This document shows, piece after piece, positions 561-27,649 of a DNA stretch of 64,000 bases (its first letter is position 1; each line of letters opens with the position of its first letter). The notes below the pieces were generated by a model, which was given only the letters and a program-made list of their open reading frames with translations, was not told the DNA's origin and searched no databases. The position numbers were made by a program, and so were the translations under genes. The stretch is from IMG/VR virus record IMGVR_UViG_2541047857_000014, one strand, 5' to 3'. The stretch comes from a virus. Its lineage: Duplodnaviria > Heunggongvirae > Uroviricota > Caudoviricetes.

Positions 561-2261
561 ATGGAACACTTAAGACAACTGCAAAATAAAACTTCCCTGT
601 TAGAAAAGTACGGGACTAGTAACGCACATCTTTTATGGTCATTAGGTCTTTACTTAGATGAATCCGATTTTGATAAGCTAGCATCTGATGGACTTACTGA
701 TGGTGGAAACGATAAGAAAATAGACTTCATTACCGTAATTAATTCAACGTTATTTATTGCTCAGGGTTACTACTGCAATCAGCAAGCACTTAAAATAGTT
801 GCGCCTGCAAATAAAGCTTCTGACTTAAACACTGCTTTAGCGTGGATTATGGCAGGCTCAGGAGAGTCTCCAAATGCAAAATTAAGAGCAAAAATTTCTG
901 AGGTTAGAAAATTAATTGATGATAACGAAATTGAAGCTGTTGAATTATTATATATCCATAATTGTGCCGAATCTGAGCAGGTTAAAACTGAGCTTGAAAC
1001 TTGTCGTGACTATCTAGCAGGTAGATTTGCAGACAAAGAAATTGAGGTAACTTACAGAGAACTTGGTGTTAATAGTCTTGAAAAATTGTATATTGCGCTA
1101 TCACAACAAATTGTTGTGACTGACAATATAAAGTTCAATGGCGAACTTATAAATTCTGTACAAGGTGATGGCTGGACTTCACATGTTGGCTTTGCAAACG
1201 GCACTTGGCTAAATTATTTATACAAAAATTATGGAGCAGAATTATTTTCTGCTAATTATAGGGGGTTCATGGGATTAAATAAGAGAAGAAAAATAAACTC
1301 ATCAATTAAGAATACCGCAGAAACATCCCCAAAAGACTTCTTTGTCTTTAACAATGGTGTATCAATCCTAACAACAAAATTCAACAAAGAAAAAGGGTTG
1401 TTGGAAGGAGTTTCAATCATAAATGGAGCTCAAACCACTGGTTCTATTGGTTCAGTTCAAGATATACAAAAATTAGATGGCCTAAAAGTCCTTTGTAAGG
1501 TTATTGAATGTAATGATGCGGACAAAGTAAAAAAAATAGTCCAGTATAATAATACTCAGAATCATATTACAACCTGGGATCACTACTCTAACAGCACAGA
1601 ACAAAAACAGGTGGCAGAAGAATTTTCCACTCTTGGTTATACATATTCACTGAAACGCGGCTTCGAAAATACTGGTTCTTTATTTGGCATTGAGTCTGTT
1701 GCTCAACCGCTGATAGCGTTACATGGGGATTATGTTAGCGCCAATAGAGGTAAAAACTACGTTTTCGATACAAAATCAGCCTATGACAATGCCTTTCATG
1801 ATTCGAAAGCCCAGCATATTTTATGTGCTTACACTATTTCAAAAGCTATAGAAAAAGTAAAATCTCAAATCCGTGCAAAAGAGAATAAAATTAAAGTAGA
1901 TGAGGATAACTTATTATTCCTCCAAAATTTAAAGTCTCGATTCTTTTTAATATCCGTCATCGGAGAAATACTTGAAGAATTAACAGATAAACCTTTGAAC
2001 AAGAAGAAAATAAAATATAAATATGATACAGCATTATCTAAAAATAACTCTCTGGATGATTTAATCGACCTTTGGACACCAGTTATAACTGCGATATTAC
2101 CACATGTTATCCGTGTTTCAGGTCAAGATTTAACCACCTACTTATCTGTAACAGACAACCCGTTATCTATCGTATCAAAGGAAGTTAAAAACATATTAAC
2201 ATCCTTAAAAGCGTTCCAACCGATTGAGCCATTAATTACTCTTTCAAATCACCTTGAATAA
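561..2261 (+). CDS. AIPR-like abortive infection protein (putative), cargo gene
   Basis: 566-aa ORF with motifs FVFNNGVSIL and INGAQTTGS that I associate with the AIPR family; AT-rich; opposite strand to the flanking late genes; own terminator. Confidence 0.55.
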   Translation: MEHLRQLQNKTSLLEKYGTSNAHLLWSLGLYLDESDFDKLASDGLTDGGNDKKIDFITVINSTLFIAQGYYCNQQALKIVAPANKASDLNTALAWIMAGSGESPNAKLRAKISEVRKLIDDNEIEAVELLYIHNCAESEQVKTELETCRDYLAGRFADKEIEVTYRELGVNSLEKLYIALSQQIVVTDNIKFNGELINSVQGDGWTSHVGFANGTWLNYLYKNYGAELFSANYRGFMGLNKRRKINSSIKNTAETSPKDFFVFNNGVSILTTKFNKEKGLLEGVSIINGAQTTGSIGSVQDIQKLDGLKVLCKVIECNDADKVKKIVQYNNTQNHITTWDHYSNSTEQKQVAEEFSTLGYTYSLKRGFENTGSLFGIESVAQPLIALHGDYVSANRGKNYVFDTKSAYDNAFHDSKAQHILCAYTISKAIEKVKSQIRAKENKIKVDEDNLLFLQNLKSRFFLISVIGEILEELTDKPLNKKKIKYKYDTALSKNNSLDDLIDLWTPVITAILPHVIRVSGQDLTTYLSVTDNPLSIVSKEVKNILTSLKAFQPIEPLITLSNHLE

Positions 2262-2316: not shown

Positions 2317-2775
2317 TTACGGCTTATTGTTATTAATTAACCATTGATAAAAAACATTCTTAACGTTGTTCTCAATATCATTGTTAATACCCAACAAACG
2401 CCGCTCTGCATACCGTACGTCCGGTCCTTTGCGACTGACGCGATCACGCAGACCGTAATGGTGAACACGGGCAATGCGCTGTACCTTACCTTCAAACTGC
2501 ACGCTGGCAGAGTCGGCGCTGGCGGCAGTTTTCAGGTATTTTGTGGTGCGCAGCTTTGCAAACATCTGACGTTTGATACGGCCTTTTTTACTGCGTGCTG
2601 TTACCCGTCGCGGTTCATAGCTGCTGCCGTCAGGGTTGCGCTGCATCCTGATATTCTGCTGCTGTGTCCGGCGAAGTTCCTGCGCCAGCTGGCGCATCAT
2701 GCGGCTTCTCGAGGCTGGTTCCAGATTCGCCAGCAAGGCACTCAGCCAGTCGTCCACCTTCTGCAGTTCAGCCAC
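2317..2775 (-). CDS. S: tail completion / virion morphogenesis protein S (P2 gpS family)
   Basis: 152-aa ORF, GTG start, in conserved P2 order downstream of R; overlaps R stop. Confidence 0.8.
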   Translation of the reverse strand: MAELQKVDDWLSALLANLEPASRSRMMRQLAQELRRTQQQNIRMQRNPDGSSYEPRRVTARSKKGRIKRQMFAKLRTTKYLKTAASADSASVQFEGKVQRIARVHHYGLRDRVSRKGPDVRYAERRLLGINNDIENNVKNVFYQWLINNNKP

Positions 2776-3220
2776 ATTTCACCGTCCACATTTCTTCAGG
2801 TGCATCAGGTTCCGCTATAGCTTCAACGCTCGACACACTGCCGTCAGTGCTGACCAGCACACGTTCCGTCAGTTGCAGGTTCAGGCTGATATCACAGACA
2901 TCGTTGCGCAGAATATCCACCTCAAAGGTGAATAGCTTTTCCCGTAACGCCGGGTTATTGATGGCATCGGGCTGGTTATCCCTCAGCCACAGCAAAACCG
3001 GGGCCATCAGCAGATTCTGGTCGCCGCTGAAATCCTCAATCACCGCGTTCAGTGTGTAACGGTACTCCCACGACATGGAGCTGGCCCCCGTGGCAACCAG
3101 CGAACCGTTATCCACAAACAGATGCAGTTTGTCCGGGTTATTGCGGACATAAGGCACCGCTTTATTGAGGGCGTGGCGCAGGGATTGTGGTTTGTTCACT
3201 GTTTCGCTCCTGACACGCAA
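2768..3220 (-). CDS. R: tail completion protein R (P2 gpR family)
   Basis: ORF contains QSLRHALNKAVPYVRNNPDKLHLFVDNGS resembling P2 gpR; likely true start is GTG at about 3199 preceded by AGGAG. Confidence 0.75.
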   Translation of the reverse strand: MRVRSETVNKPQSLRHALNKAVPYVRNNPDKLHLFVDNGSLVATGASSMSWEYRYTLNAVIEDFSGDQNLLMAPVLLWLRDNQPDAINNPALREKLFTFEVDILRNDVCDISLNLQLTERVLVSTDGSVSSVEAIAEPDAPEEMWTVKCG

Positions 3221-3452
3221 TAATCATGTCCACTTTGTCTGCACAGACCGCCCAGGCGGCCTCCGTTTCATCCAGCAACGCGTTCAGATCACCGTTAGTG
3301 CGCGGCGTTGCCTGATCCAGCCGACACGGCGTCACTCGCGGACAACCACTGACGGTAAGCCATACCTCCGGTGAGTGCCGGACGTTTCCGCAGCCGGATA
3401 ATGTCAGCAGGCAAAGGAGTATCAGCCCAGCGGCGTAAATCCTCGTTCTCAC
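3162..3452 (-). CDS. lysC: LysC-like outer-membrane spanin lipoprotein (Rz1-type), overlapping lysB in another frame
   Basis: N-terminal signal MRTRIYAAGLILLCLLTLSGC with lipobox LSGC; begins inside the lysB frame as in P2 lysB/lysC. Confidence 0.6.
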   Translation of the reverse strand: MRTRIYAAGLILLCLLTLSGCGNVRHSPEVWLTVSGCPRVTPCRLDQATPRTNGDLNALLDETEAAWAVCADKVDMIIACQERNSEQTTIPAPRPQ

Positions 3453-3723
3453 GTTTCAGTTCCTCGATCCGGTGTTGTCGTTGTCTCAGCAGCGTGCTGG
3501 TCTGTTCTGCTTCGGCATAGAGCCGCGCCTGCTCCCGGTTATTGGTTTCAGTCAGAATGGACAGGCTGATAAGCTGGCTATTGCTCTTTGCCAGTGCCTG
3601 GCTTTTGCTCTGCAGCTCGTCTGCCTGCGTGCTGATGGTCTGGCTGGCATCAGCCAGCCGCCACGTCTGCCAGCCCAGCGCCGCCAGTAATAACGTCAGC
3701 ACAACCAGCAGCAACCGGTTCAT
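3295..3723 (-). CDS. lysB: LysB-like inner-membrane spanin (Rz-type)
   Basis: 142-aa ORF with N-terminal TM segment and coiled-coil-like body (ELQSKSQALAKSNSQL, IEELKRENEDLRRW); position after lysA. Confidence 0.7.
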   Translation of the reverse strand: MNRLLLVVLTLLLAALGWQTWRLADASQTISTQADELQSKSQALAKSNSQLISLSILTETNNREQARLYAEAEQTSTLLRQRQHRIEELKRENEDLRRWADTPLPADIIRLRKRPALTGGMAYRQWLSASDAVSAGSGNAAH

Positions 3724-4097
3724 GCTGCTACCTGTTGCGCCATCTGATTACGGGTGATCCAGAAGGCAATAACGGTCAGTAGATAAAAGACCAGGGTAAT
3801 AGCCCACCCCGTCCAGGCGAGACTTACAACAATCAGCAATCGCATCACCCAACTGGTAAATACGTTTTCTTTTCGAGTAATTGTCTTCAGCAAAGATGCC
3901 CTTAACTCCTGCCAGAGCGGGCCATTCTTAATTAACGCAGCCAGTGCTACCGGAATTACCGCCCATGTCAGCAAACAGGCTACCCAAACGCCGGACGCTG
4001 CCAGTACCGGAAAAATCCCCTGCGGATACACCATTGCTGCGATTAACAGCGCCATCCATAACATCAGAAACAGTCCGCTGATTAATTTCTTTTTCAT
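3720..4097 (-). CDS. lysA: LysA-like lysis accessory membrane protein
   Basis: ATG at 4097 directly after endolysin stop (start MKKKLISGLFLMLWMALLIAAMV); several hydrophobic segments; P2 lysis-cassette position. Confidence 0.55.
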   Translation of the reverse strand: MKKKLISGLFLMLWMALLIAAMVYPQGIFPVLAASGVWVACLLTWAVIPVALAALIKNGPLWQELRASLLKTITRKENVFTSWVMRLLIVVSLAWTGWAITLVFYLLTVIAFWITRNQMAQQVAA

Positions 4098-4098
4098 T

Positions 4099-4611
4099 TC
4101 AGTTTGCTCCCTGTAAACACCAGGCCATCTCCCGCGCACGGCGGTTATCCAGCCCCTGATTAAAAACACCTTTCACATAAACCCAGCGCGGCAACTGTCG
4201 GCATGCATCCGCCCAGCGCCGCTGATTGAGCAATTTCACCAGCGTGGAACTACAGGCATTGCCCGTCCCCACGTTGAAGGCAAACGACACCGTAGCGTCA
4301 TACACCTTCTGCGGCGGCTGTTGCTTCACACACCTTTCCAACGCCCGCTCCACTCGTAGCACGTTGGAGATCAGCCCTTCAGCTGCCTGTCGTTCCGTAA
4401 TAATTTTGCCGGGAATGACGCCCGACGTATTACCAATGCCGTCGGTCCAGACACCCGCGCTGCACTGATACGGCTGCAGACGACAGCCTTCATAATCAGC
4501 GATCAGTTTCAGTCCCTCCTCGGAGGTGTGAAGCTGCTGAAACCCCGGCAGCGTGGCAGCAATAGCCAGCACGGCCCCGACAAGGCAGCGTTTAACGATT
4601 GATGGATTCAT
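4099..4611 (-). CDS. K: endolysin, lysozyme family with N-terminal signal-anchor (P2 gpK-like)
   Basis: 170-aa ORF; N-terminal hydrophobic segment then lysozyme-like core (EGCRLQPYQCSAGVWTDGIGNT, FAFNVGTGN); overlaps holin gene end. Confidence 0.8.
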   Translation of the reverse strand: MNPSIVKRCLVGAVLAIAATLPGFQQLHTSEEGLKLIADYEGCRLQPYQCSAGVWTDGIGNTSGVIPGKIITERQAAEGLISNVLRVERALERCVKQQPPQKVYDATVSFAFNVGTGNACSSTLVKLLNQRRWADACRQLPRWVYVKGVFNQGLDNRRAREMAWCLQGAN

Positions 4612-4807
4612 AGTCCTCCCGCGAGATCTGCCCGTCGCGCAGAAGCTGGTAGGCTTTGTGTTTGTAGTACCAGTTGATAGCCAGCATCAGCACACCGATC
4701 ATCAGGCCGCCCAGCGTTGAGGCATCCTTGATGGACAAATCGCCCAGCCAGGCCAGCACGACGGCGATGCAATACGTGATAAAGGCGCTGATTCGCTCAA
4801 GCGTCAT
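4592..4807 (-). CDS. Y: holin (P2 gpY-like)
   Basis: 71-aa protein with two hydrophobic helices and charged C-terminus, immediately upstream of endolysin. Confidence 0.7.
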   Translation of the reverse strand: MTLERISAFITYCIAVVLAWLGDLSIKDASTLGGLMIGVLMLAINWYYKHKAYQLLRDGQISREDYESINR

Positions 4808-4810
4808 AAT

Positions 4811-5014
4811 TCAGTCCCATAGCTGGACGGTCTGCACGGTGGTGGTGGTCGGAATGTCCGGCAGCTCCACCTGCAGCCCGTGAGGTAAAAAGGGGCCGTA
4901 TTCGGCAAGCCCCGGATTTGCCTTCAGTACCTGCTCCGTGACACCCTGCGTGCGCCCGTAATGACGCCAGCAAAGTGCGTCCACCGTGTCATACTGATGC
5001 GCACGCACTTTCAT
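4811..5014 (-). CDS. X: tail protein X (P2 gpX family)
   Basis: 67-aa ORF MKVRAHQYDTVDALCWRHYGRTQGVTEQVLKANPGLAEYGPFLPHG closely resembling P2 gpX. Confidence 0.8.
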   Translation of the reverse strand: MKVRAHQYDTVDALCWRHYGRTQGVTEQVLKANPGLAEYGPFLPHGLQVELPDIPTTTTVQTVQLWD

Positions 5015-18567: not shown

Positions 18568-18810
18568 TTACTTACCAACAATGACGCGGAAGTTGGAATG
18601 ACCGAGGGATTCACGGACCTGATCAGTTTTGTACATCAGATAACGAAGGCTTACGCGGCCTTTATTTTTTTCTTTCTTGACCATGTACTTAGCAAGTTGA
18701 CCATGGTGAATTTTTTGGTAAACAGAGCCACGGGAAATGCCCTCCCACTCTGCGAACTCTGCAGGCGTAGCCATCTCTTTTGGTACACGAATTGAAATAT
18801 CAGTACTCAT
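18568..18810 (-). CDS. Apl/Cox-like excisionase and transcriptional regulator
   Basis: 80-aa first gene of the early operon, divergent from the repressor gene. Confidence 0.6.
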   Translation of the reverse strand: MSTDISIRVPKEMATPAEFAEWEGISRGSVYQKIHHGQLAKYMVKKEKNKGRVSLRYLMYKTDQVRESLGHSNFRVIVGK

Positions 18811-18931
18811 AGTGCAGTATCTCTTACTTTGTGTGCGTGTTAGTTCGTTTTAGCTCGTCTCTTTAACTCTCACATCAAGAGACACGAAGACATTACGATC
18901 TTGATTCAAGATTGTCAAATGGAGATTACCA
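18811..18931. promoter_or_regulatory. divergent lysis/lysogeny promoter-operator region
   Basis: 120-bp gap between divergent repressor and Apl-like genes, as in P2/186 switch regions. Confidence 0.5.
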
Positions 18932-19564
18932 ATGTTAAACATCAGAATGGGTTCCGATACGGGAGGTAAGGCAGCTATTGAGAGGCTGCTTGAGGCTTAT
19001 GGATTCACAACTAAGCAGGCATTAAGCGAGCACCTGAATGTCTCAAAAAGTACTATGGCAAACAGAGTGTTACGTGACAGTTTTCCTGCTGACTGGATAA
19101 TTCAGTGTGCACTAGAAACCGGTGTTTCGTTACTTTGGTTAGCCACTGGACAGGGAAGCATGAAAGAAGGATACGAGTCTGAGAAAAGATCTCATAACGA
19201 GAACAAACAAGCAATTAAACCGTTATCCAAACTCATAACTCCATCTATTCCTAAAGGAACCTTGGAAAATGGACAACTCAGTATTGATGAAGAGATTTTC
19301 CTAGACCACAGCATATTACCTGCAGATTATGAAGAATCGATGTTCTTAGAAACCCCTACTGATTGTTATCTCATCGATAAATCAGTTAAACAAGTCAGCA
19401 ATGGATTCTGGCTTATCAATATTGATGGAATGATTATTATTGCAAAAATCATGCGGATTCCCGGCAATAAGATTGTAGTAAATCAAGATGAAGCGTCTTT
19501 CGAGTGCTCTGCCGATGATGTGGAAGTTATTGGGCGTGCAGTCAAAGTAATAAAGAGTATCTAA
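18932..19564 (+). CDS. immunity repressor (186 CI-like)
   Basis: 210-aa ORF with N-terminal HTH-like segment (TKQALSEHLNVSKSTMANR), upstream of and co-oriented with int. Confidence 0.7.
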   Translation: MLNIRMGSDTGGKAAIERLLEAYGFTTKQALSEHLNVSKSTMANRVLRDSFPADWIIQCALETGVSLLWLATGQGSMKEGYESEKRSHNENKQAIKPLSKLITPSIPKGTLENGQLSIDEEIFLDHSILPADYEESMFLETPTDCYLIDKSVKQVSNGFWLINIDGMIIIAKIMRIPGNKIVVNQDEASFECSADDVEVIGRAVKVIKSI

Positions 19565-19566
19565 AC

Positions 19567-20586
19567 ATGACTGTCAGAAAACAGCCAAACGGTAAATGGT
19601 TGTGCGAGTGCTATCCCAATGGACGCAATGGCAAGCGCGTGCGTAAGCAATTTGCTACGAAAGGCGAAGCCATTGCTTTTGAAAGCTTCACAATGGAAGA
19701 AGTGAACAAAAAACCATGGCTGGGGGAAAAGGAAGATCGGCGACACCTATCAGAATTAATTGAGCAGTGGTATTCCCTGTATGGTCAAACACTCGCAGAC
19801 CCCAAGCGCCTCATAGCGAAACTTAGAATTATCTGTAATGGTCTAGGCGATCCCATCGCTTCAGAACTGACAGCCGGTGACTTTACGAAATACCGCGAAG
19901 CACGGTTAAAAGGTGAAGTACGAAATGAAGATGGCACGTTTATGTCGCCCGTTAAGCCCCGCACGGTAAACCTTGAACAGCGCAATCTATCATCTGTTTT
20001 TGGTACACTGAAAAAGCTGGGCCACTGGTCAGCCCCCAACCCGCTTGCTGGGCTGCCAACATTTAAAATTGCTGAGAGTGAATTGGCGTTCCTGACCCCG
20101 GAAGAAATTAAACGTCTGCTGGATGCCTGCGCCGATTCTCAAAGCTCCAGCCTGCTTTTGATTGCAAAAATATGCCTGGCCACCGGCGCACGCTGGAGCG
20201 AAGCCGAAAACCTGCAGAGTCATCAGGTATCAAAATACCGTATCACTTATACCAAGACCAAAGGCAAGAAAAACCGAACTGTGCCTATTTCTAAGGATTT
20301 ATATGAAGAACTGCCTAAGAATAGGGGGAAGTTATTCACCCCATGCAGAAAAGCCTTTGAGCGTGCAGTAAAGCGAGCCGGTTTAGAACTACCAGAAGGC
20401 CAATGTACCCATGTTCTGCGCCATACATTTGCCAGTCATTTTATGATGAACGGTGGAAATATACTGGTACTGCGCGATATTCTTGGACATGCCGATATAA
20501 AAATGACGATGATTTACGCTCATTTTTCCCCAGATCATCTTGAAGATGCAGTAACTAAAAACCCATTAGCAACCTTGATGGATTAA
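19567..20586 (+). CDS. int: tyrosine integrase (P2/186 Int family)
   Basis: 339-aa ORF with C-terminal HVLRHTFASHFMMNGG...LGHADIKMTMIYAH catalytic motifs; adjacent to att repeat. Confidence 0.9.
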   Translation: MTVRKQPNGKWLCECYPNGRNGKRVRKQFATKGEAIAFESFTMEEVNKKPWLGEKEDRRHLSELIEQWYSLYGQTLADPKRLIAKLRIICNGLGDPIASELTAGDFTKYREARLKGEVRNEDGTFMSPVKPRTVNLEQRNLSSVFGTLKKLGHWSAPNPLAGLPTFKIAESELAFLTPEEIKRLLDACADSQSSSLLLIAKICLATGARWSEAENLQSHQVSKYRITYTKTKGKKNRTVPISKDLYEELPKNRGKLFTPCRKAFERAVKRAGLELPEGQCTHVLRHTFASHFMMNGGNILVLRDILGHADIKMTMIYAHFSPDHLEDAVTKNPLATLMD

Positions 20587-20590
20587 GCAC

Positions 20591-21814
20591 ATGCGCAACA
20601 TTATCGAATTAGAACAGATATCGGAAGAACTAAAAAAACATGAACTATTGCAACCCCCATTCATTGCCGAGGGAAAACTAATTTCTGACTTTTCTAAGAG
20701 AGTCGAGTGCTATTTAGAATTAATTGACTCCATTAGAAATAAATATCCTGACAACGAGATAATTAAACAAGTAAAGATTCGCACAAAATCAATAATATAT
20801 TTATCTGATAAAATAATAGAAACTCTTAAGCTATTTTTAATAGGAAATGTTAAAGAAGCTTATAAAAAATTCGATTTGGCAATTACCAAGTCATCAATGC
20901 ATACTCATCTTTATAAGATGACTGTTCCTCTAACTAAATTATGCAACCCACACACCCCTTTATTTCGCGTAAGGAAAAGTGAGTGCATCCTAAAACAAAG
21001 AGAAGAATTATTTCATATACCATTTAAAAATAGACATTTAGTTAGCGCACAAAGATTTTCTGTATCCGGTCTTCCATGTTTATATCTTGGAACATCAATA
21101 TTTGTATGTTGGCAAGAAATGGGAAAACCTGACTTTGATAAACTTTACATATCTTCCTTCATATCCGATAAAGAAAATTCAAATATAAGAATTTTAGATC
21201 TTGGGTACAATTTAACATCTGCACTTCGTACAAAACCGGGAGATCTTTGGTATTCATTCGAACAAGGTTCAGATGATGATTACGATCTAAATAATGATAA
21301 TTTCATGGATCAAATTAATGATAAAATTTCAAAGTTGATTGCATGGCCTTTAGTCCTTGCATGTAACTATACAAAAGATAATGAAAACGCAAGTTTTAAT
21401 AAAGAATACATAATACCAAACCTATTAATGCAATGGATTAGTAGTGACAGAAACAAAAATATATCAGGGATATCGTATCGATCAACAAAGATATTAAACC
21501 AAAAAGATAGCGATATTGGGATTAATGTAATTATCCCCCCAAAAATAGAAAACATAGTTGAAACCAATGATACCCACTGTCCTGTTTTAAAAAAAATATT
21601 TAGAGTTACAAACCCTGTTTCCTGGACTGTGTTTAGTACACTAGAAGCCACCCCCTATCTATACAAAAATAATTTTAATTTTTCGACCTATAATCCCGCA
21701 AAAGGATGGATTGAAGACTTTGATGAATCCCTTGTTGAACATTATGAAAATACCACTTTTAGAAAAGTTGAACTCCTTATTCATCAAATGATGAAGTATG
21801 AATATTTAAAATAA
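20591..21814 (+). CDS. RES-domain protein (putative NAD-targeting toxin/effector), 407 aa
   Basis: Segment LFRVRK...AQRFSVSGLPCLYLGTSIFVCWQEMG fits the RES domain pattern (R-x-FNxxG-x-P-x-LYL-x-S...E); ATG 4 nt after int stop; strongly AT-rich. Confidence 0.55.
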   Translation: MRNIIELEQISEELKKHELLQPPFIAEGKLISDFSKRVECYLELIDSIRNKYPDNEIIKQVKIRTKSIIYLSDKIIETLKLFLIGNVKEAYKKFDLAITKSSMHTHLYKMTVPLTKLCNPHTPLFRVRKSECILKQREELFHIPFKNRHLVSAQRFSVSGLPCLYLGTSIFVCWQEMGKPDFDKLYISSFISDKENSNIRILDLGYNLTSALRTKPGDLWYSFEQGSDDDYDLNNDNFMDQINDKISKLIAWPLVLACNYTKDNENASFNKEYIIPNLLMQWISSDRNKNISGISYRSTKILNQKDSDIGINVIIPPKIENIVETNDTHCPVLKKIFRVTNPVSWTVFSTLEATPYLYKNNFNFSTYNPAKGWIEDFDESLVEHYENTTFRKVELLIHQMMKYEYLK

Positions 21815-21929
21815 GAGTGGCGGCATAATGGCGGCAAAGAGTTAAAAACACATAAAACAAGGTAATACATCGTAAACTTAAGTGATTGAAAATTAACATA
21901 AATAGTTGTTTTGCAACATGTTATAATGG

Positions 21930-21975
21930 TATGTAGGAATTTCGGACGCGGGTTCAACTCCCGCCAGCTCCACCA
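21930..21975 (+). other. ssrA: 3-prime fragment of ssrA (tmRNA) forming the prophage attachment-site repeat
   Basis: atgtaggaatttcggacgcgggttcaactcccgccagctccacca matches the E. coli tmRNA 3-prime end as I recall it; no tmRNA body upstream. Confidence 0.7.
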
Positions 21976-22103
21976 ATCATGATTGGACGGTGTAAGGACA
22001 ACACCAACAAAAACAGGAAGTTAGAAGTCTCAGCAGGACACCGACCAGACGGTGAGGAGACATAAAAGGATACGCAAAGGAGCCGCGGCTCCGAAGTGAA
22101 ATG

Positions 22104-22128
22104 AAAGCCCGCTGATGCGGGCTTTTTT
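22104..22128 (+). terminator. rho-independent terminator
   Basis: aaagcccgc tgat gcgggcttttttg hairpin plus T-run downstream of the ssrA fragment. Confidence 0.55.
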
Positions 22129-22360
22129 GCTTCTTCTCTTTAGCCTGATTCGACACTCTCAATGCGGCCATAAACAACAACCCACTTTTCTTATACCGTA
22201 GCCTGTCCCCCTCTTCCTGCTTTCTAACCATAACAGATGTGAGCGTTTGCTATGAGCGATATATAGTCATTCGTACCCTCCGATACTAATCATCACAGAA
22301 ATTAATATATTCATTCCTTACTGAAAAGCTATGAAGTAGATATATAGGATTGGGGCGCGT

Positions 22361-22558
22361 ATGGCACTGGACAGTTATGCATCTCCGAATATTATTCCGG
22401 AGCTAAGACAACCGAATGCCGCAGCAGGTAAGATCACGCTAGGGGGGCTGGACAGAATGGCTGTTACGCCCAGTGTGAAGAAAAGAAGGCTAAGTATGGT
22501 AGAATTTCCATACGCACAGACCTTGTTATCCGACTATACAGCCTGGAAGGCACTATGA
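22361..22558 (+). CDS. small hypothetical protein (65 aa), translationally coupled to downstream nuclease-like gene
   Basis: Stop overlaps the ATG of the next gene (ATGA); weak RBS. Confidence 0.35.
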   Translation: MALDSYASPNIIPELRQPNAAAGKITLGGLDRMAVTPSVKKRRLSMVEFPYAQTLLSDYTAWKAL

Positions 22559-23343
22559 CAAATCTACAACTGGAAGAAAGATTTAGGGCGCTTGAGAAAG
22601 ATTACGATGCGCTCATTTCCACAAAATATACTGCGCAGAACGTTCTCACTCACACTATGGAAACCTATGTTGATTCTGGTAAATATAAAAACTGGATCGC
22701 CAGAGTGAAAAAGTTAATAGAGGACAGCTACGGAAAAGAGTCTGATTATTACAATGACTTCAATACTGTAAACAGCAGGTGGTCTTCTAATTACAATACA
22801 CTGATCAAAAGTTATAAACCGTTGTTTGATGCGGCGAGAGATGATCTTGCGCACTCTGCTGTCAGTACTAATACTCCTCAAGAAGGTTCGCCGCTGAGCC
22901 TCGTACTTAATATTCTTAACAGGTTTCCGACCTTTGTTCGCCAGTTAAAGAGGCGGTACAACGGCCGTGCGCCGCTTGAAGTTAATGATGAGTATGACGT
23001 ACAGGATTTGATTTATGCACTGCTGACGCTTCATTTTAATGATATTAGGGCGGAAGAGTATACCCCCAGCTTTGCGGGCGCGGCCTCAAGACAGGACTTT
23101 CTTTTGAAAAAAGAGAAAATTGTGATAGAGGTGAAGAAAACCCGTGAATCTCTGGGAGCGGGTAAAGTTGGTGGAGAGTTGCTTATTGATATGGCGCGCT
23201 ACCGCGCTCACCAAGACTGCGATACGTTGATCTTGTTTGTATATGACCCGGATTGCTACATAAATAATCCTTTGGGCGTGAAAACCGATCTGGAATCTAA
23301 AGACGCGGAAGGAAAAGTGAAGGTTGTTATTGCGCAGTTCTGA
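22555..23343 (+). CDS. PD-(D/E)xK nuclease-like protein (putative), 262 aa
   Basis: C-terminal half has D...(Q)DFLL...IVIEVKK spacing typical of restriction-endonuclease-fold motifs II/III; GGAAGG RBS. Confidence 0.5.
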   Translation: MTNLQLEERFRALEKDYDALISTKYTAQNVLTHTMETYVDSGKYKNWIARVKKLIEDSYGKESDYYNDFNTVNSRWSSNYNTLIKSYKPLFDAARDDLAHSAVSTNTPQEGSPLSLVLNILNRFPTFVRQLKRRYNGRAPLEVNDEYDVQDLIYALLTLHFNDIRAEEYTPSFAGAASRQDFLLKKEKIVIEVKKTRESLGAGKVGGELLIDMARYRAHQDCDTLILFVYDPDCYINNPLGVKTDLESKDAEGKVKVVIAQF

Positions 23344-23387
23344 CACGCTTAAGTGTCACCTTACAGGATTAGGTTTGCGGCCGTGCC

Positions 23388-23430
23388 AGCAGGACGAGCA
23401 TGAAAAAGGCCGCTGGCACGGCCGGATTTG
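23388..23430. terminator. bidirectional hairpin terminator between convergent genes
   Basis: 11-bp inverted repeat gccgtgccagc / gctggcacggc with about 11-nt loop. Confidence 0.5.
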
Positions 23431-23724
23431 TCATCTTTGCCAGGTCAAATCAAAATCTACGTGAAAATCCGCAGGCTTAAGCTCGCAACTGCCACCACGC
23501 CCAATTAACGACGTTATGTTTACAACGTTTGAACCTGTTGAGATGGCAAGTTGAGTGTCATCTGTAAACGTGATGATTAGCATTTCAGTCTGATGAACCT
23601 GTACTCCAGTTTTCTGAAAACCAATCTGGACAGATTTCACCGTTTTCCCAACCATTTCACGGGCTTGATTGATAGAGTAATTAGCTTCAACTTGTAGGTC
23701 ATTCCTGAACTTGGGTAGTGTCAT
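23431..23724 (-). CDS. hypothetical protein (97 aa) downstream of GIY-YIG gene
   Basis: ORF co-oriented with and downstream of the GIY-YIG gene. Confidence 0.4.
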   Translation of the reverse strand: MTLPKFRNDLQVEANYSINQAREMVGKTVKSVQIGFQKTGVQVHQTEMLIITFTDDTQLAISTGSNVVNITSLIGRGGSCELKPADFHVDFDLTWQR

Positions 23725-23934
23725 TTTACATCCTCTTTAGTGAAGTTTTCGCTATTTAAATCAGCAGCATTCCTTTTAAATCACTGGCATGTCAGCAGTG
23801 GATAGTCTGAGTGTAACGTCCAGTGAGGGGAATAAATATTGGTCAGACTTTGCACAAAAGAGCCAACTATCGCGGGCTCTCTCTCATCATGTGCGAAAAT
23901 TGACCACAATATGAAATCCAGTTCCATTCCGAAA

Positions 23935-24759
<825 letters not shown>

Positions 24760-24859
24760 TCAATTGACAACTTATAATCCCTACTAGTTAGCATTATGAT
24801 TTCCAGAGTGAGGAATATAAAAATCTCTGTTTCTGGCACATAACAGCCCTTAAGATCGT

Positions 24860-24915
24860 AGCTCGCCATCATGGGGTGTCGGGGGGCGGAGGTTCAAATC
24901 CTCTCGTGCCGACCA
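24860..24915 (+). other. tRNA-like 3-prime fragment (T-arm plus acceptor end), possible old attachment-site scar
   Basis: ggaggttcaaatcctctcgtgccgacca has a T-loop-like GGTTCAAATCC and ends in CCA; no complete cloverleaf upstream; followed by a terminator. Confidence 0.35.
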
Positions 24916-24930
24916 AAAATCCCTTAAGAA

Positions 24931-24956
24931 CCAGCCTATTATGGCTGGTTTTTTTA
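24931..24956 (+). terminator. rho-independent terminator
   Basis: ccagcc tattat ggctgg followed by TTTTTTT. Confidence 0.55.
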
Positions 24957-25156
24957 TGATTGTTTTTTATGCGGAGAAATACCGGGGAATAATTGGGGTA
25001 AAACACCTTTAGGCTATTCACTTAGCCTACCACCATCAAAATCTTTCCGAATGTATCCATCTCTTTTTTCTTATGCAGCTAAAACGAAGTCTTGATACTG
25101 TTTATTTACACAGATAAGAATAATACTGTCTACAAACGCAGTACAAAAGAAGTGTT

Positions 25157-25335
25157 ATGCGTATTGAGATCTCCATAGCCAAAGACAAAATGACCAAATG
25201 CCAAACGGCGCTGTGGACGCGTTAAAGGAAGAATTAACCCAACACATTGGCAAGCGTTATGACGATGTGGAGATGATCGTAAAAGCCACCAGCAACGATA
25301 GTTTTTCAGTTAGACATACTGCAGATAAAGATTGA
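25157..25335 (+). pseudogene. DinI-like gene interrupted by a frameshift
   Basis: Frame 1 from ATG about 25157 gives [14 protein letters not shown] then stops; the -1 frame continues [37 protein letters not shown] (DinI-like); break lies in an A-run. Confidence 0.5.
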
Positions 25336-25759
25336 GCTAAAACTTTCGTTCAGGAAACTCTGAATGATACCTGAGAGTCTACTGAAGAGTTGTTTGTTCA
25401 CTAGTTAGCACGTAGGAAATCATTCAATACTCGCACTATCGGAAGTTCACCAGCCAGTCGTAGCACGTCCTTGCAAACGACGTGCCTACGGTTTCAATCA
25501 CCTCTCACCATCAATTCTATCAATAATAATTAAACAGCGCCTAGACAAAATAAATAACAACAAGTCAACAACCTCGACAGGATGCCGATGGGATGATGAA
25601 GAGATAAGAAAGAATAACCAGTAAAGCCCTAAAACGTCAGCGTTCAGACGCGTTTTTTACTTAATCGGTAACAAATACGTTGTATCATAGCAAAATAAAA
25701 TGATTGTTCTAAATCAGATTAACTCCTCACTTTTGTACAATGTCGCTTACAGGTATACC

Positions 25760-27649
25760 ATGAAATCCGAGACGCTAACTGTCCAACAACTTTTTCAAGA
25801 CCGCCGACAATACTGTGTTCCATTCTATCAACGTGCCTATGTATGGACTCAGCAAGACCAGTGGTCAGCTCTACTGGAGGATATCCTAGAGAAAGTACAA
25901 TCCCGGCTCTCGGGTACAAAACCAACTCCCCATTTCCTTGGTGCGGTTGTACTGGAACCTCAATCAAAAAAAGGATTATTAGGTGTAGATTCCATACATA
26001 TTATTGATGGTCAGCAACGATTGACCACTCTTCAATATGTTCTGGCATCCATCCGATTAGCATTACGTGCTACGGATCTTTCCAGCTTAGAGGCTCTCAT
26101 TTCGCCTTGCCTGAAAAACTCAAACGAAGACACAATGCGAAATAAAGAAGTAGAACGCTTCAAACTGTGGCCAACTTTTCGGGATCAAACTCATTTTATT
26201 CAAAGTTTTAATGTTGAAAATATTGACGATCTCCGGGACGTATTCTCTGATAGTTTCACGCAGCATGGTACGTTGCGTAAGCATTTTAATCACCCGCCAT
26301 CACTAGAAGCATTATGTTTTTTTACTGAAGCCTTTATAAAATGGATTAAAATAGAAAACCACTCACCACAAGAAAATGCTGTAGCTCTAATTGAGGCTGT
26401 CTTAACAGATCTGAAACTGGTAAGCATATTTCTCGAAGCTGAAGATGATGCCCAAATAATTTTTGAAACATTAAATGGGCGAGGGGCGGAACTTCATGCT
26501 ACGGATCTTATTCGCAACTATATCTTTATGTGCGCTGAGCATGAAAATATTAATGCTATTGAATTATATGAAAATGAGTGGAAGAGCTTTGAAGATAAAT
26601 ACTGGTCGGAAAAACAACGCCGTGGACGTATTAATAAACCACGCATGGAGTGGCTAGTACATGCGACATTGCAATCAGAAAGGCAACGTGAAATTGATCT
26701 GTCTCGCCTTTACAATGAGTATCGTGATTATGTAAGTAAGGACTTGTCTTCACAACGAGCAGATCTGCAAGTAAAGCGCCTCAAACAATATGCATCACAA
26801 TATAAAGAATTGGTTGATGGTTTTGGCACAACCCCCATCTCACACTTTGGATATCGCATCGCAGACTATGATGTGACGACACTTTATCCGCTTGCTTTGT
26901 TCATTTCGATAGCTAACATCGCTGATGATGAGAAAGCAGCCATGTATAATGATCTTGTCTCCTACGTAGTACGAAGAGCCGTATGTGGCCTGACGCCAAA
27001 GAATTACAACAATGTATTTATGAATGTATTGCGGCACTTGGCTAAAACGGAAATTTCCAGTGTTGAGTTACGTAATATCCTCAATAACTTAAATGGCGAA
27101 GCCTCACGTTGGCCTGGTGACTCAGAATTTCTCAACGCTTGCATCAATGCTCCACTTTATCCTGGCAGGCTCGACGCACCGAAAATGCGCTCAATGTTAA
27201 CGGAACTTGAAAGAGAACTTTGTCGCCAAGTAAAGACAGAAAAGCCTGATGTTCCAAATCTTTCTAATCTCGATATCGATCATCTTATGCCTCAAAGTTG
27301 GTATTCCTGTTGGCCTCTCGAAAATGGTCGTATGGTGACAAATTCAGATGCTACGGTATTGAACCAAATTGTTCTGTCTGGAACCGATCTTACCCCTGAA
27401 CAGCTACTGGTAAGGAAACGGCAACAAGCGATATCTACTTTGGGAAATCTAACTTTGCTTAACCTTAGCGTAAACCGTTCTGTTCAGAATGCTGTATTTC
27501 TGAAAAAACGTGATGCTCTCATCGTCCACACCAATCTACGACTGAACATTCCACTTATAGTTAAGGATAAATGGGATGAGGATGAAATCCTGGAGCGGGG
27601 TAAAAAGTTGGGGGAAATTGCATTGAAAGTATGGCCAAAACACGATTAA
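25760..27649 (+). CDS. fused DUF262-DUF1524 protein, GmrSD-like type IV (modification-dependent) restriction endonuclease
   Basis: N-terminal PFYQRAYVW and IIDGQQRLTTL motifs (DUF262) plus C-terminal DIDHLMPQSW His-Me-type motif (DUF1524); ORF from 25700, probable ATG at 25760. Confidence 0.8.
   Translation: MKSETLTVQQLFQDRRQYCVPFYQRAYVWTQQDQWSALLEDILEKVQSRLSGTKPTPHFLGAVVLEPQSKKGLLGVDSIHIIDGQQRLTTLQYVLASIRLALRATDLSSLEALISPCLKNSNEDTMRNKEVERFKLWPTFRDQTHFIQSFNVENIDDLRDVFSDSFTQHGTLRKHFNHPPSLEALCFFTEAFIKWIKIENHSPQENAVALIEAVLTDLKLVSIFLEAEDDAQIIFETLNGRGAELHATDLIRNYIFMCAEHENINAIELYENEWKSFEDKYWSEKQRRGRINKPRMEWLVHATLQSERQREIDLSRLYNEYRDYVSKDLSSQRADLQVKRLKQYASQYKELVDGFGTTPISHFGYRIADYDVTTLYPLALFISIANIADDEKAAMYNDLVSYVVRRAVCGLTPKNYNNVFMNVLRHLAKTEISSVELRNILNNLNGEASRWPGDSEFLNACINAPLYPGRLDAPKMRSMLTELERELCRQVKTEKPDVPNLSNLDIDHLMPQSWYSCWPLENGRMVTNSDATVLNQIVLSGTDLTPEQLLVRKRQQAISTLGNLTLLNLSVNRSVQNAVFLKKRDALIVHTNLRLNIPLIVKDKWDEDEILERGKKLGEIALKVWPKHD

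Follow-up and report, generated by a model that had tools for sequence, protein, structure and literature searches.

The stretch of DNA considered here (64,000 nucleotides (nt) of the IMG/VR virus record IMGVR_UViG_2541047857_000014, referred to below as the window) contains part of a prophage in which a gene for a 407-amino-acid (aa) protein with a divergent RES domain is located between the integrase gene and the attachment site attR. In the part that was compared (19500-22600) the window is 100% identical to Escherichia coli S88 (NC_011742.1), and positions in that record are converted to those of the window by subtracting 2,810,405. The prophage belongs to the P2-like group, as was assumed in a preliminary description of this DNA; however, it is not P2 proper but of the 186 type (CI, CII, Fil, Rha). 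Three genes follow each other on its plus strand, viz. the gene for the CI repressor (18932-19564; Pfam Phage_CI_repr 1.7e-30 and Phage_CI_C 7.2e-31; annotated in S88 as phage repressor protein CI), which is the first of a presumed lysogenic operon, the tyrosine integrase gene int (19567-20586; Int_N 1.1e-28, Phage_integrase 6.4e-26) and the RES gene (20591-21814), an open reading frame (ORF) with an ATG start whose product matches phrog_7835 over its full length (4.8e-180). The int stop codon TAA (20584-20586) is followed by the letters gcac and then by the ATG at 20591, so that the 4-nt spacing on the same strand given in the preliminary description is exact. The RES gene ends 116 nt before the attR core (21931-21976, plus strand), which is a duplicated 3' end of ssrA matching the ssrA gene of the same genome exactly over 46 nt, where the number of such matches expected by chance is 0; a 52-nt stretch at this core is also 100% identical in the phage Cartapus. 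This ssrA remnant escapes both ARAGORN and Rfam, which report no transfer-messenger RNA in the window, and it was revealed by alignment to the S88 ssrA gene. The intact ssrA and the opposite end of the prophage are outside the window, about 12 kb to its left, and due to these two copies the RES gene can be assigned to the prophage, with int on one side and attR on the other, as had been proposed.

It is most likely that the RES gene is transcribed together with cI and int in the lysogen. This is inferred from the spacing of 4 nt past int (6-10 nt for the other genes found at this place in related prophages, described below) and from the lack of terminator-like sites on the plus strand from 18664 to 22102. 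The first such site 3' of cI, int and the RES gene is a hairpin at 22103-22126 (plus strand; 10-bp stem with 6 GC pairs and a T tail), which is on the chromosomal side of attR; in the lysogen, a hairpin of the chromosome is thus the first terminator-like site past the repressor, integrase and cargo genes.

The interval between int and the att site (the int-att slot) is a variable single-gene cassette, covering 20569-21815. In blastn comparisons with sister prophages carrying either gapS1 or a gene for a 222-aa protein, homology stops at 20565-20570, 16-21 nt ahead of the stop codon of int, and it restarts at 21816-21818, directly past the stop codon of the RES gene. For int itself the end of homology is put at 20568, 18 nt short of its stop codon. 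The left junction therefore cuts int within its final six or seven codons, and the right one is immediately behind the stop codon of the cargo. The exactness of these edges suggests that the cassettes are exchanged by recombination at short conserved flanks and not by random insertion. The slot is occupied by gapS1 in E. coli BEN5202, by the unrelated 222-aa gene (phrog_21256) in E. coli AF5 and CEA212U, and by homologues of the RES gene with 38-42% identity in Salmonella prophages, Cartapus, RE2010 and SopEPhi. Whichever cargo is present, its start codon is found 4-10 nt past int. The preliminary description had regarded the RES gene as inserted cargo, and this is borne out by the cassette edges, by the different genes in sister prophages and by a GC content of about 30%, compared to 45-50% for int and the downstream DNA. 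The int-att slot has been reported as a minor defence hotspot of P2 (10.64898/2026.02.27.708500), and the RES gene, with its exact cassette and alternative occupants, is cargo of a P2-like hotspot of this kind. It resembles GapS1-type cargo in being in the same slot, with exact cassette edges and tight spacing past int; however, the two proteins are unrelated, and GapS1 has a name in the Prokaryotic Genome Annotation Pipeline (PGAP) and a curated family, whereas the RES gene is annotated as hypothetical. The 222-aa protein (WP_001518837.1; phrog_21256, of unknown function), encoded at 2595-3263 in both loci L011 (E. coli AF5) and L012 (E. coli CEA212U) and present in many E. coli prophages, is by its position another candidate for a single-gene defence.

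The assignment of the 407-aa protein to the RES enzymes is based on three independent lines of evidence, including transitivity within its family and the alignment of its profile to that of aRES, the stand-alone RES proteins discussed below. In the profile search that had been proposed for this purpose, the protein on its own fell short, as its match to Pfam RES (PF08808; residues 141-205, profile positions 11-75) has a score of 12.2 bits (E 0.19) where the gathering cut-off is 23.2 bits. However, the family as a whole gave a positive result: the member P0260 scores above the cut-off (29.6 bits, profile positions 1-132 of 157), P0266 reaches 22.2 bits, and sub-threshold matches to RES, which is the sole Pfam family matched by many members, were seen for 19 of 29 close and 17 of 47 distant members. 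When the family profile was aligned by HHalign to the aRES protein of E. coli UC5 (UC5 below), which has been validated by experiment, residues 121-323 matched residues 177-356 over 169 columns with a probability of 92% (E 5.5e-7). The AlphaFold2 model of the protein (predicted local distance difference test score (pLDDT) 80; predicted template-modelling score 0.82) has the three-dimensional fold of RES proteins and ADP-ribosyltransferases (ART), and its best structural match is the NAD+ (nicotinamide adenine dinucleotide) phosphorylase MbcT. The protein thus has a genuine but very divergent RES domain, whose relationship to the known ones is remote, and its identity as a RES enzyme is well supported.

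The residues of the active site are also conserved. The RES pattern noticed earlier in the central region corresponds to the motif RFSVSGLPCLYLGTS...E at residues 155-176. Six residues of UC5, viz. R182, R184, R215, Y225, E236 and S334, were mutated in the aRES study, where point mutations of predicted active-site residues abolished defence (10.64898/2026.01.28.702374). Based on the HHalign alignment, these residues correspond here to R126 (conserved in 45 of 47 diverse family members), R128 (46/47), R155, Y165 and E176 (47/47 each) and S298 (Ser in 44 of the 47 and Thr in the rest), so that all six are identical in the 407-aa protein and 94-100% conserved in the family. The alignment of the predicted catalytic Arg, Glu and Ser called for in the preliminary description is therefore in hand, with R155, E176 and S298 matching R215, E236 and S334. 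RES proteins have been described as having Asn in place of the catalytic Glu of ARTs, together with Y and N substitutions (PMC9503650); N312, which is invariant in the family and aligns with the Asn of the aRES sequence GYNVV, is this RES-specific Asn, and the ART-site Arg, Tyr and Asn are represented by R126/R128, Y165 and N312. In MbcT, R27, R47 and Y58 are essential for toxicity, and these residues with Glu69 have the same spacing pattern as R126/R128, R155, Y165 and E176. Judged by its sequence, the predicted enzyme looks active, as its active-site residues are conserved. That the gene encodes instead a catalytically dead or decaying remnant of a RES protein is very improbable. Such a view could draw upon the score under the Pfam cut-off, the frameshifted gpA gene of the prophage and the rarity of the gene in E. 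coli (30 of 5,426 complete genomes); however, the ORF is intact and of full length like its relatives, the active-site residues are conserved in diverse members to the extent described above, and 2,730 clusters at 50% identity make up the family.

The RES toxins of toxin-antitoxin systems (viz. MbcT, P. putida Res, NatT, VPA0770 and ParT) are proteins of 144-250 aa, and an Xre-type antitoxin, which blocks their active site, invariably accompanies them. The 407-aa protein, about twice the usual size as had been noted, is not a small single-domain toxin of about 150-250 aa. Relative to those toxins it has three additional regions, of which the N- and C-terminal ones had been recognized in the preliminary description. 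On the plus strand, residues 1-110 (20591-20920) form a six-helix bundle, which is a candidate regulatory or sensor domain. They are followed by the first half of the RES core at residues 111-190 (20921-21160; R126, R128, R148, R155, S157, Y165, S169 and E176), which aligns to aRES 177-252 and is the most conserved region, with a mean top-residue frequency of 0.78 in profile A1 and 0.56 in A3 (these two being whole-protein profiles, while A4 covers the core only). A hypervariable, partly acidic and indel-rich insert within the RES domain (residues 191-250; 21161-21340) is the least conserved region, with top-residue frequencies of 0.32 and 0.22, gaps of 20-25% and pLDDT below 50 at residues 220-236. 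The second half of the core (residues 251-345; 21341-21625) contains E272, Y273, S298, which aligns with aRES S334, and N312, and a C-terminal helical extension covers residues 346-407 (21626-21811).

A partner gene of the kind seen with RES-Xre toxins is likewise missing. Upstream of the RES gene on its strand there are only int and the CI repressor gene, in agreement with the earlier claim that no small Xre-like antitoxin gene is present there, and no adjacent Xre-type antitoxin gene was found in the window or recurred in 80 loci of relatives. These loci were retained for neighbour analysis from 170 relatives detected by a scan with profile A4 of one genome per species; they represent Proteobacteria, Bacteroidota, Bacillota and Planctomycetota, coming from Enterobacterales, Marinomonas, Aeromonas, Ferrimonas, many Bacteroidota, Paenibacillus, Bacillus, Clostridia, Planctomycetota and a Pelobacter metagenome-assembled genome, and their neighbouring genes were compared by all-against-all BLAST after simple gene calling (the contigs of the distant representatives P0260 and P0130 are too short for gene context). 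No neighbour family was shared by more than 4 loci out of the 80, and the few that recurred were integrases or came from closely related genomes; small same-strand upstream ORFs were sporadic and mutually unrelated, with no consistent helix-turn-helix (HTH) gene. The sole hint of a partner, and the one exception noted, is in the phage SPbeta, where yopB, a 75-aa HTH gene, precedes yopC (3348-5011 of locus L013 for the pair); YopB might have a regulatory role or might resemble an antitoxin, as a partner found only in the Bacillus branch. A literature search on SPbeta yopC found nothing relevant. YopC is a full-length homologue in the same PHROG 7835 (3.1e-137; tblastn 29% identity over 77% of the query) and is likewise borne by a temperate phage, but it has 442 aa and a different genomic setting, placed after yopB. 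Due to the lack of an antitoxin and its size, the 407-aa protein is not a RES-Xre toxin; similarity to these toxins is also not detectable by HMMER. The related idea that it is an addiction or stabilization toxin which keeps the prophage in its host, being neutralized by a non-adjacent antidote or by its own extensions and having no anti-phage role, appears improbable to us. All RES proteins studied before aRES were toxins of toxin-antitoxin systems, the HTH gene ahead of yopC would suit such a role, and co-expression with the repressor would link control of a toxin to lysogeny. However, this idea is countered by the absence of a small partner in the window or recurring in the 80 loci, by the exchange of the slot with the validated defence gene gapS1, and by a length far above that of RES toxins. 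As a separate matter, a hidden antisense antitoxin ORF or RNA within the RES gene was considered and rejected, as there are 11 promoter-like sites where 10.9 are expected and the antisense ORFs are at the chance level for AT-rich DNA.

The closest known system is aRES (Osterman et al.), comprising stand-alone RES proteins that convert NAD+ to nicotinamide and ADP-ribose-1''-phosphate, leading to growth arrest and abortive infection (bioRxiv 10.64898/2026.01.28.702374). The 407-aa protein resembles these in being a stand-alone RES protein of 300-600 aa without an operon partner, in having a non-catalytic domain before the RES domain, in the alignment of the RES domains with identity of the six mutated residues, and in its occurrence in defence or mobile-element contexts. 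However, the definition of aRES includes the N-terminal domain HEPN_RES_NTD1 (PF18870), detected by HHsearch against Pfam (10.64898/2026.01.28.702374), and here a plain helical bundle is found in its place; in our scan no match to PF18870 at E <= 1 was seen in the query or the scanned members, compared to 21.3 bits for UC5, HHsearch being the method of the authors themselves. The present family further differs in having two regions of about 60 residues each, the hypervariable insert and the helical extension at the C terminus, and in a RES domain that diverges too far to reach the Pfam cut-off; its motifs GLPCLYLG, FHIPF and EYIIPN do not occur in the aRES sequences given in the supplement to that paper (10.64898/2026.01.28.702374). 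As its N-terminal bundle is unrelated to the N-terminal domain of aRES, the 407-aa protein is not a member of aRES as defined.

Based on these considerations, we give a little better than an even chance to the interpretation that the gene encodes a stand-alone, probably auto-inhibited, NAD+-cleaving RES enzyme, which as single-gene cargo of the int-att slot serves in abortive-infection defence. The grounds for it, viz. the fold, homology, conserved active site, lack of a partner gene, cassette structure and defence-rich context, were computed, while the product of the enzyme, its expression in the lysogen, its triggering and its effect against phages are what we infer. The interpretation offered in the preliminary description is thus supported overall. 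The reaction would most likely be phosphorolysis of NAD+ to nicotinamide and ADP-ribose-1''-phosphate. In the lysogen, where the gene would be transcribed with cI and int, the enzyme would be silent, probably by auto-inhibition, and upon infection by another phage some cue would free it, possibly sensed via the variable N-terminal bundle, the hypervariable insert or the C-terminal helices. By analogy with the aRES model, depletion of NAD+ would follow, arresting the infected cell and blocking phage production.

A number of observations weigh against this interpretation. The score of the query under the Pfam cut-off has been noted; in addition, searches of PDB sequences with the HMMER profiles A1, A3 and A4 matched no RES toxin, their sole matches being designed helical proteins at the N-terminal bundle, and Foldseek returned no PDB structure with an E value under 0.7. 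PADLOC, which has no model for the protein, and NCBIfam gave no match to it, the loop bearing R155 is modelled at pLDDT below 50, and no experimental work on the PHROG 7835 family was found in the literature. Structure prediction of the flanking domains, as proposed earlier, yielded a helical N-terminal bundle and C-terminal helices, but no informative fold match for the bundle, and neither the N-terminal nor the C-terminal profile resembled aRES in HHalign (N-terminal probability 0.3%). As the N-terminal domain is unlike that of aRES and has no informative fold match, activation by infection is a matter of pure analogy. The yopB-yopC arrangement leaves room for a toxin-antitoxin-like setup in some members, and due to the frameshift in gpA the selection acting on the present copy of the RES gene is uncertain. 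Further, RES enzymes can also act as protein ADP-ribosyltransferases (ParT), so that the product may be a different one. It is conceivable, although unlikely, that the protein is a ParT-like ADP-ribosyltransferase which modifies a specific host or phage macromolecule and does not deplete NAD+, in which case a role in defence or exclusion would still be possible; however, the best structural match is to an NAD+ phosphorylase, phage defence by RES proteins has been demonstrated only for ones that deplete NAD+, and all six mutated aRES residues are conserved.

Clusters of the family at 50% identity number 2,730 at E <= 1e-3 and 1,158 at E <= 1e-30; the proteins are typically 360-400 aa long (median about 375 aa), homology is full-length and a word index gave 296 matches. 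All copies in the 30 E. coli genomes are labelled hypothetical protein by PGAP and PHROG 7835 is annotated as of unknown function, while RES labels are found on Cartapus (putative RES protein, NAD+ binding domain), the RefSeq yopC of SPbeta and some UniRef entries. Of 132 neighbouring proteins searched against Pfam, Phage_integrase was the commonest match (8), and restriction components, GmrSD, SIR2/ThsA and TIR were found 2-3 times each. The gene might alternatively benefit the phage itself, for example by altering host NAD+ when the prophage is induced or the phage grows lytically, by removing immune signals derived from NAD+, or by serving as a lysogenic-conversion or virulence factor in extraintestinal pathogenic E. 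coli or Salmonella, but only a small chance can be given to this. Phages carry homologues of it (Cartapus, RE2010, SopEPhi and SPbeta), the host strain S88 is pathogenic and a virulence effector is known from SopEPhi, all of which accord with such a role. However, the position downstream of cI and int points to expression in the lysogen and not in lytic growth, some members are found outside prophages near restriction, Thoeris-like and TIR genes, and a secretion signal or evidence of the effector type is lacking. Like the other alternatives considered above, this one fits the evidence less well than NAD+-depleting abortive infection.

A broader proposal, which we advance tentatively and rate below an even chance, is that the PHROG 7835/YopC-like proteins are RES immune enzymes which, like aRES, stand alone but form a second family with an architecture of its own and of very large size (about 2,700 clusters at 50% identity in at least four phyla), in which the fast-evolving bundle, the acidic insert and the C-terminal helices would act as a new phage sensor or auto-inhibitory lid. 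As the RES domain is so divergent, these enzymes may escape aRad1-type inhibitors that target aRES or may form a different NAD+ product. Since the aRES preprint the likely mechanism is no longer surprising, and the family is a well-defined candidate for validation. If the proposal is correct, a widespread family of hypothetical proteins, missed by PGAP, precomputed Pfam annotations, PADLOC 2.0 and PHROGs, would become NAD+-targeting immune enzymes, and a larger share of bacteria and temperate phages would be known to use NAD+ depletion for defence. It would also provide a second, independent architecture for how stand-alone RES enzymes stay silent and switch on, and the int-att slot of 186/P2-like prophages would be on record as a place where single genes plug in exactly and are expressed along with the repressor, which is of use in mining for more single-gene defences.

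Both other classical variable slots of the prophage are occupied by defence genes. A full-length homologue of PD-T7-1 (469 aa; 11130-12536, minus strand; PADLOC E 1.3e-196, also matching PD-T7-5), annotated as hypothetical protein, is located between the portal gene and a DinI-like gene, at the classical old/tin hotspot of P2. An AIPR family protein (561-2261, plus strand; PADLOC AbiU E 1.7e-24, with a weak match to MzaE) is encoded amid baseplate and tail genes, and its site would be the third defence-type cargo slot of the prophage. The gene for the replication endonuclease gpA (13444-15884, minus strand) is frameshifted according to the S88 RefSeq record, and the prophage may be replication-defective with its cargo genes intact. 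Just past attR a second defence cluster is present at 22555-27649, which includes a DpnII/MboI-type PD-(D/E)XK nuclease (22555-23343; Pfam 9.5e-49), PD-T4-3 with a GIY-YIG domain (23935-24741, minus strand; PADLOC 8.6e-137) and a DUF262 type IV restriction enzyme (25760-27649). This cluster, which is followed by a Mu-like tail module, is probably the trace of an older element at ssrA, now degraded.
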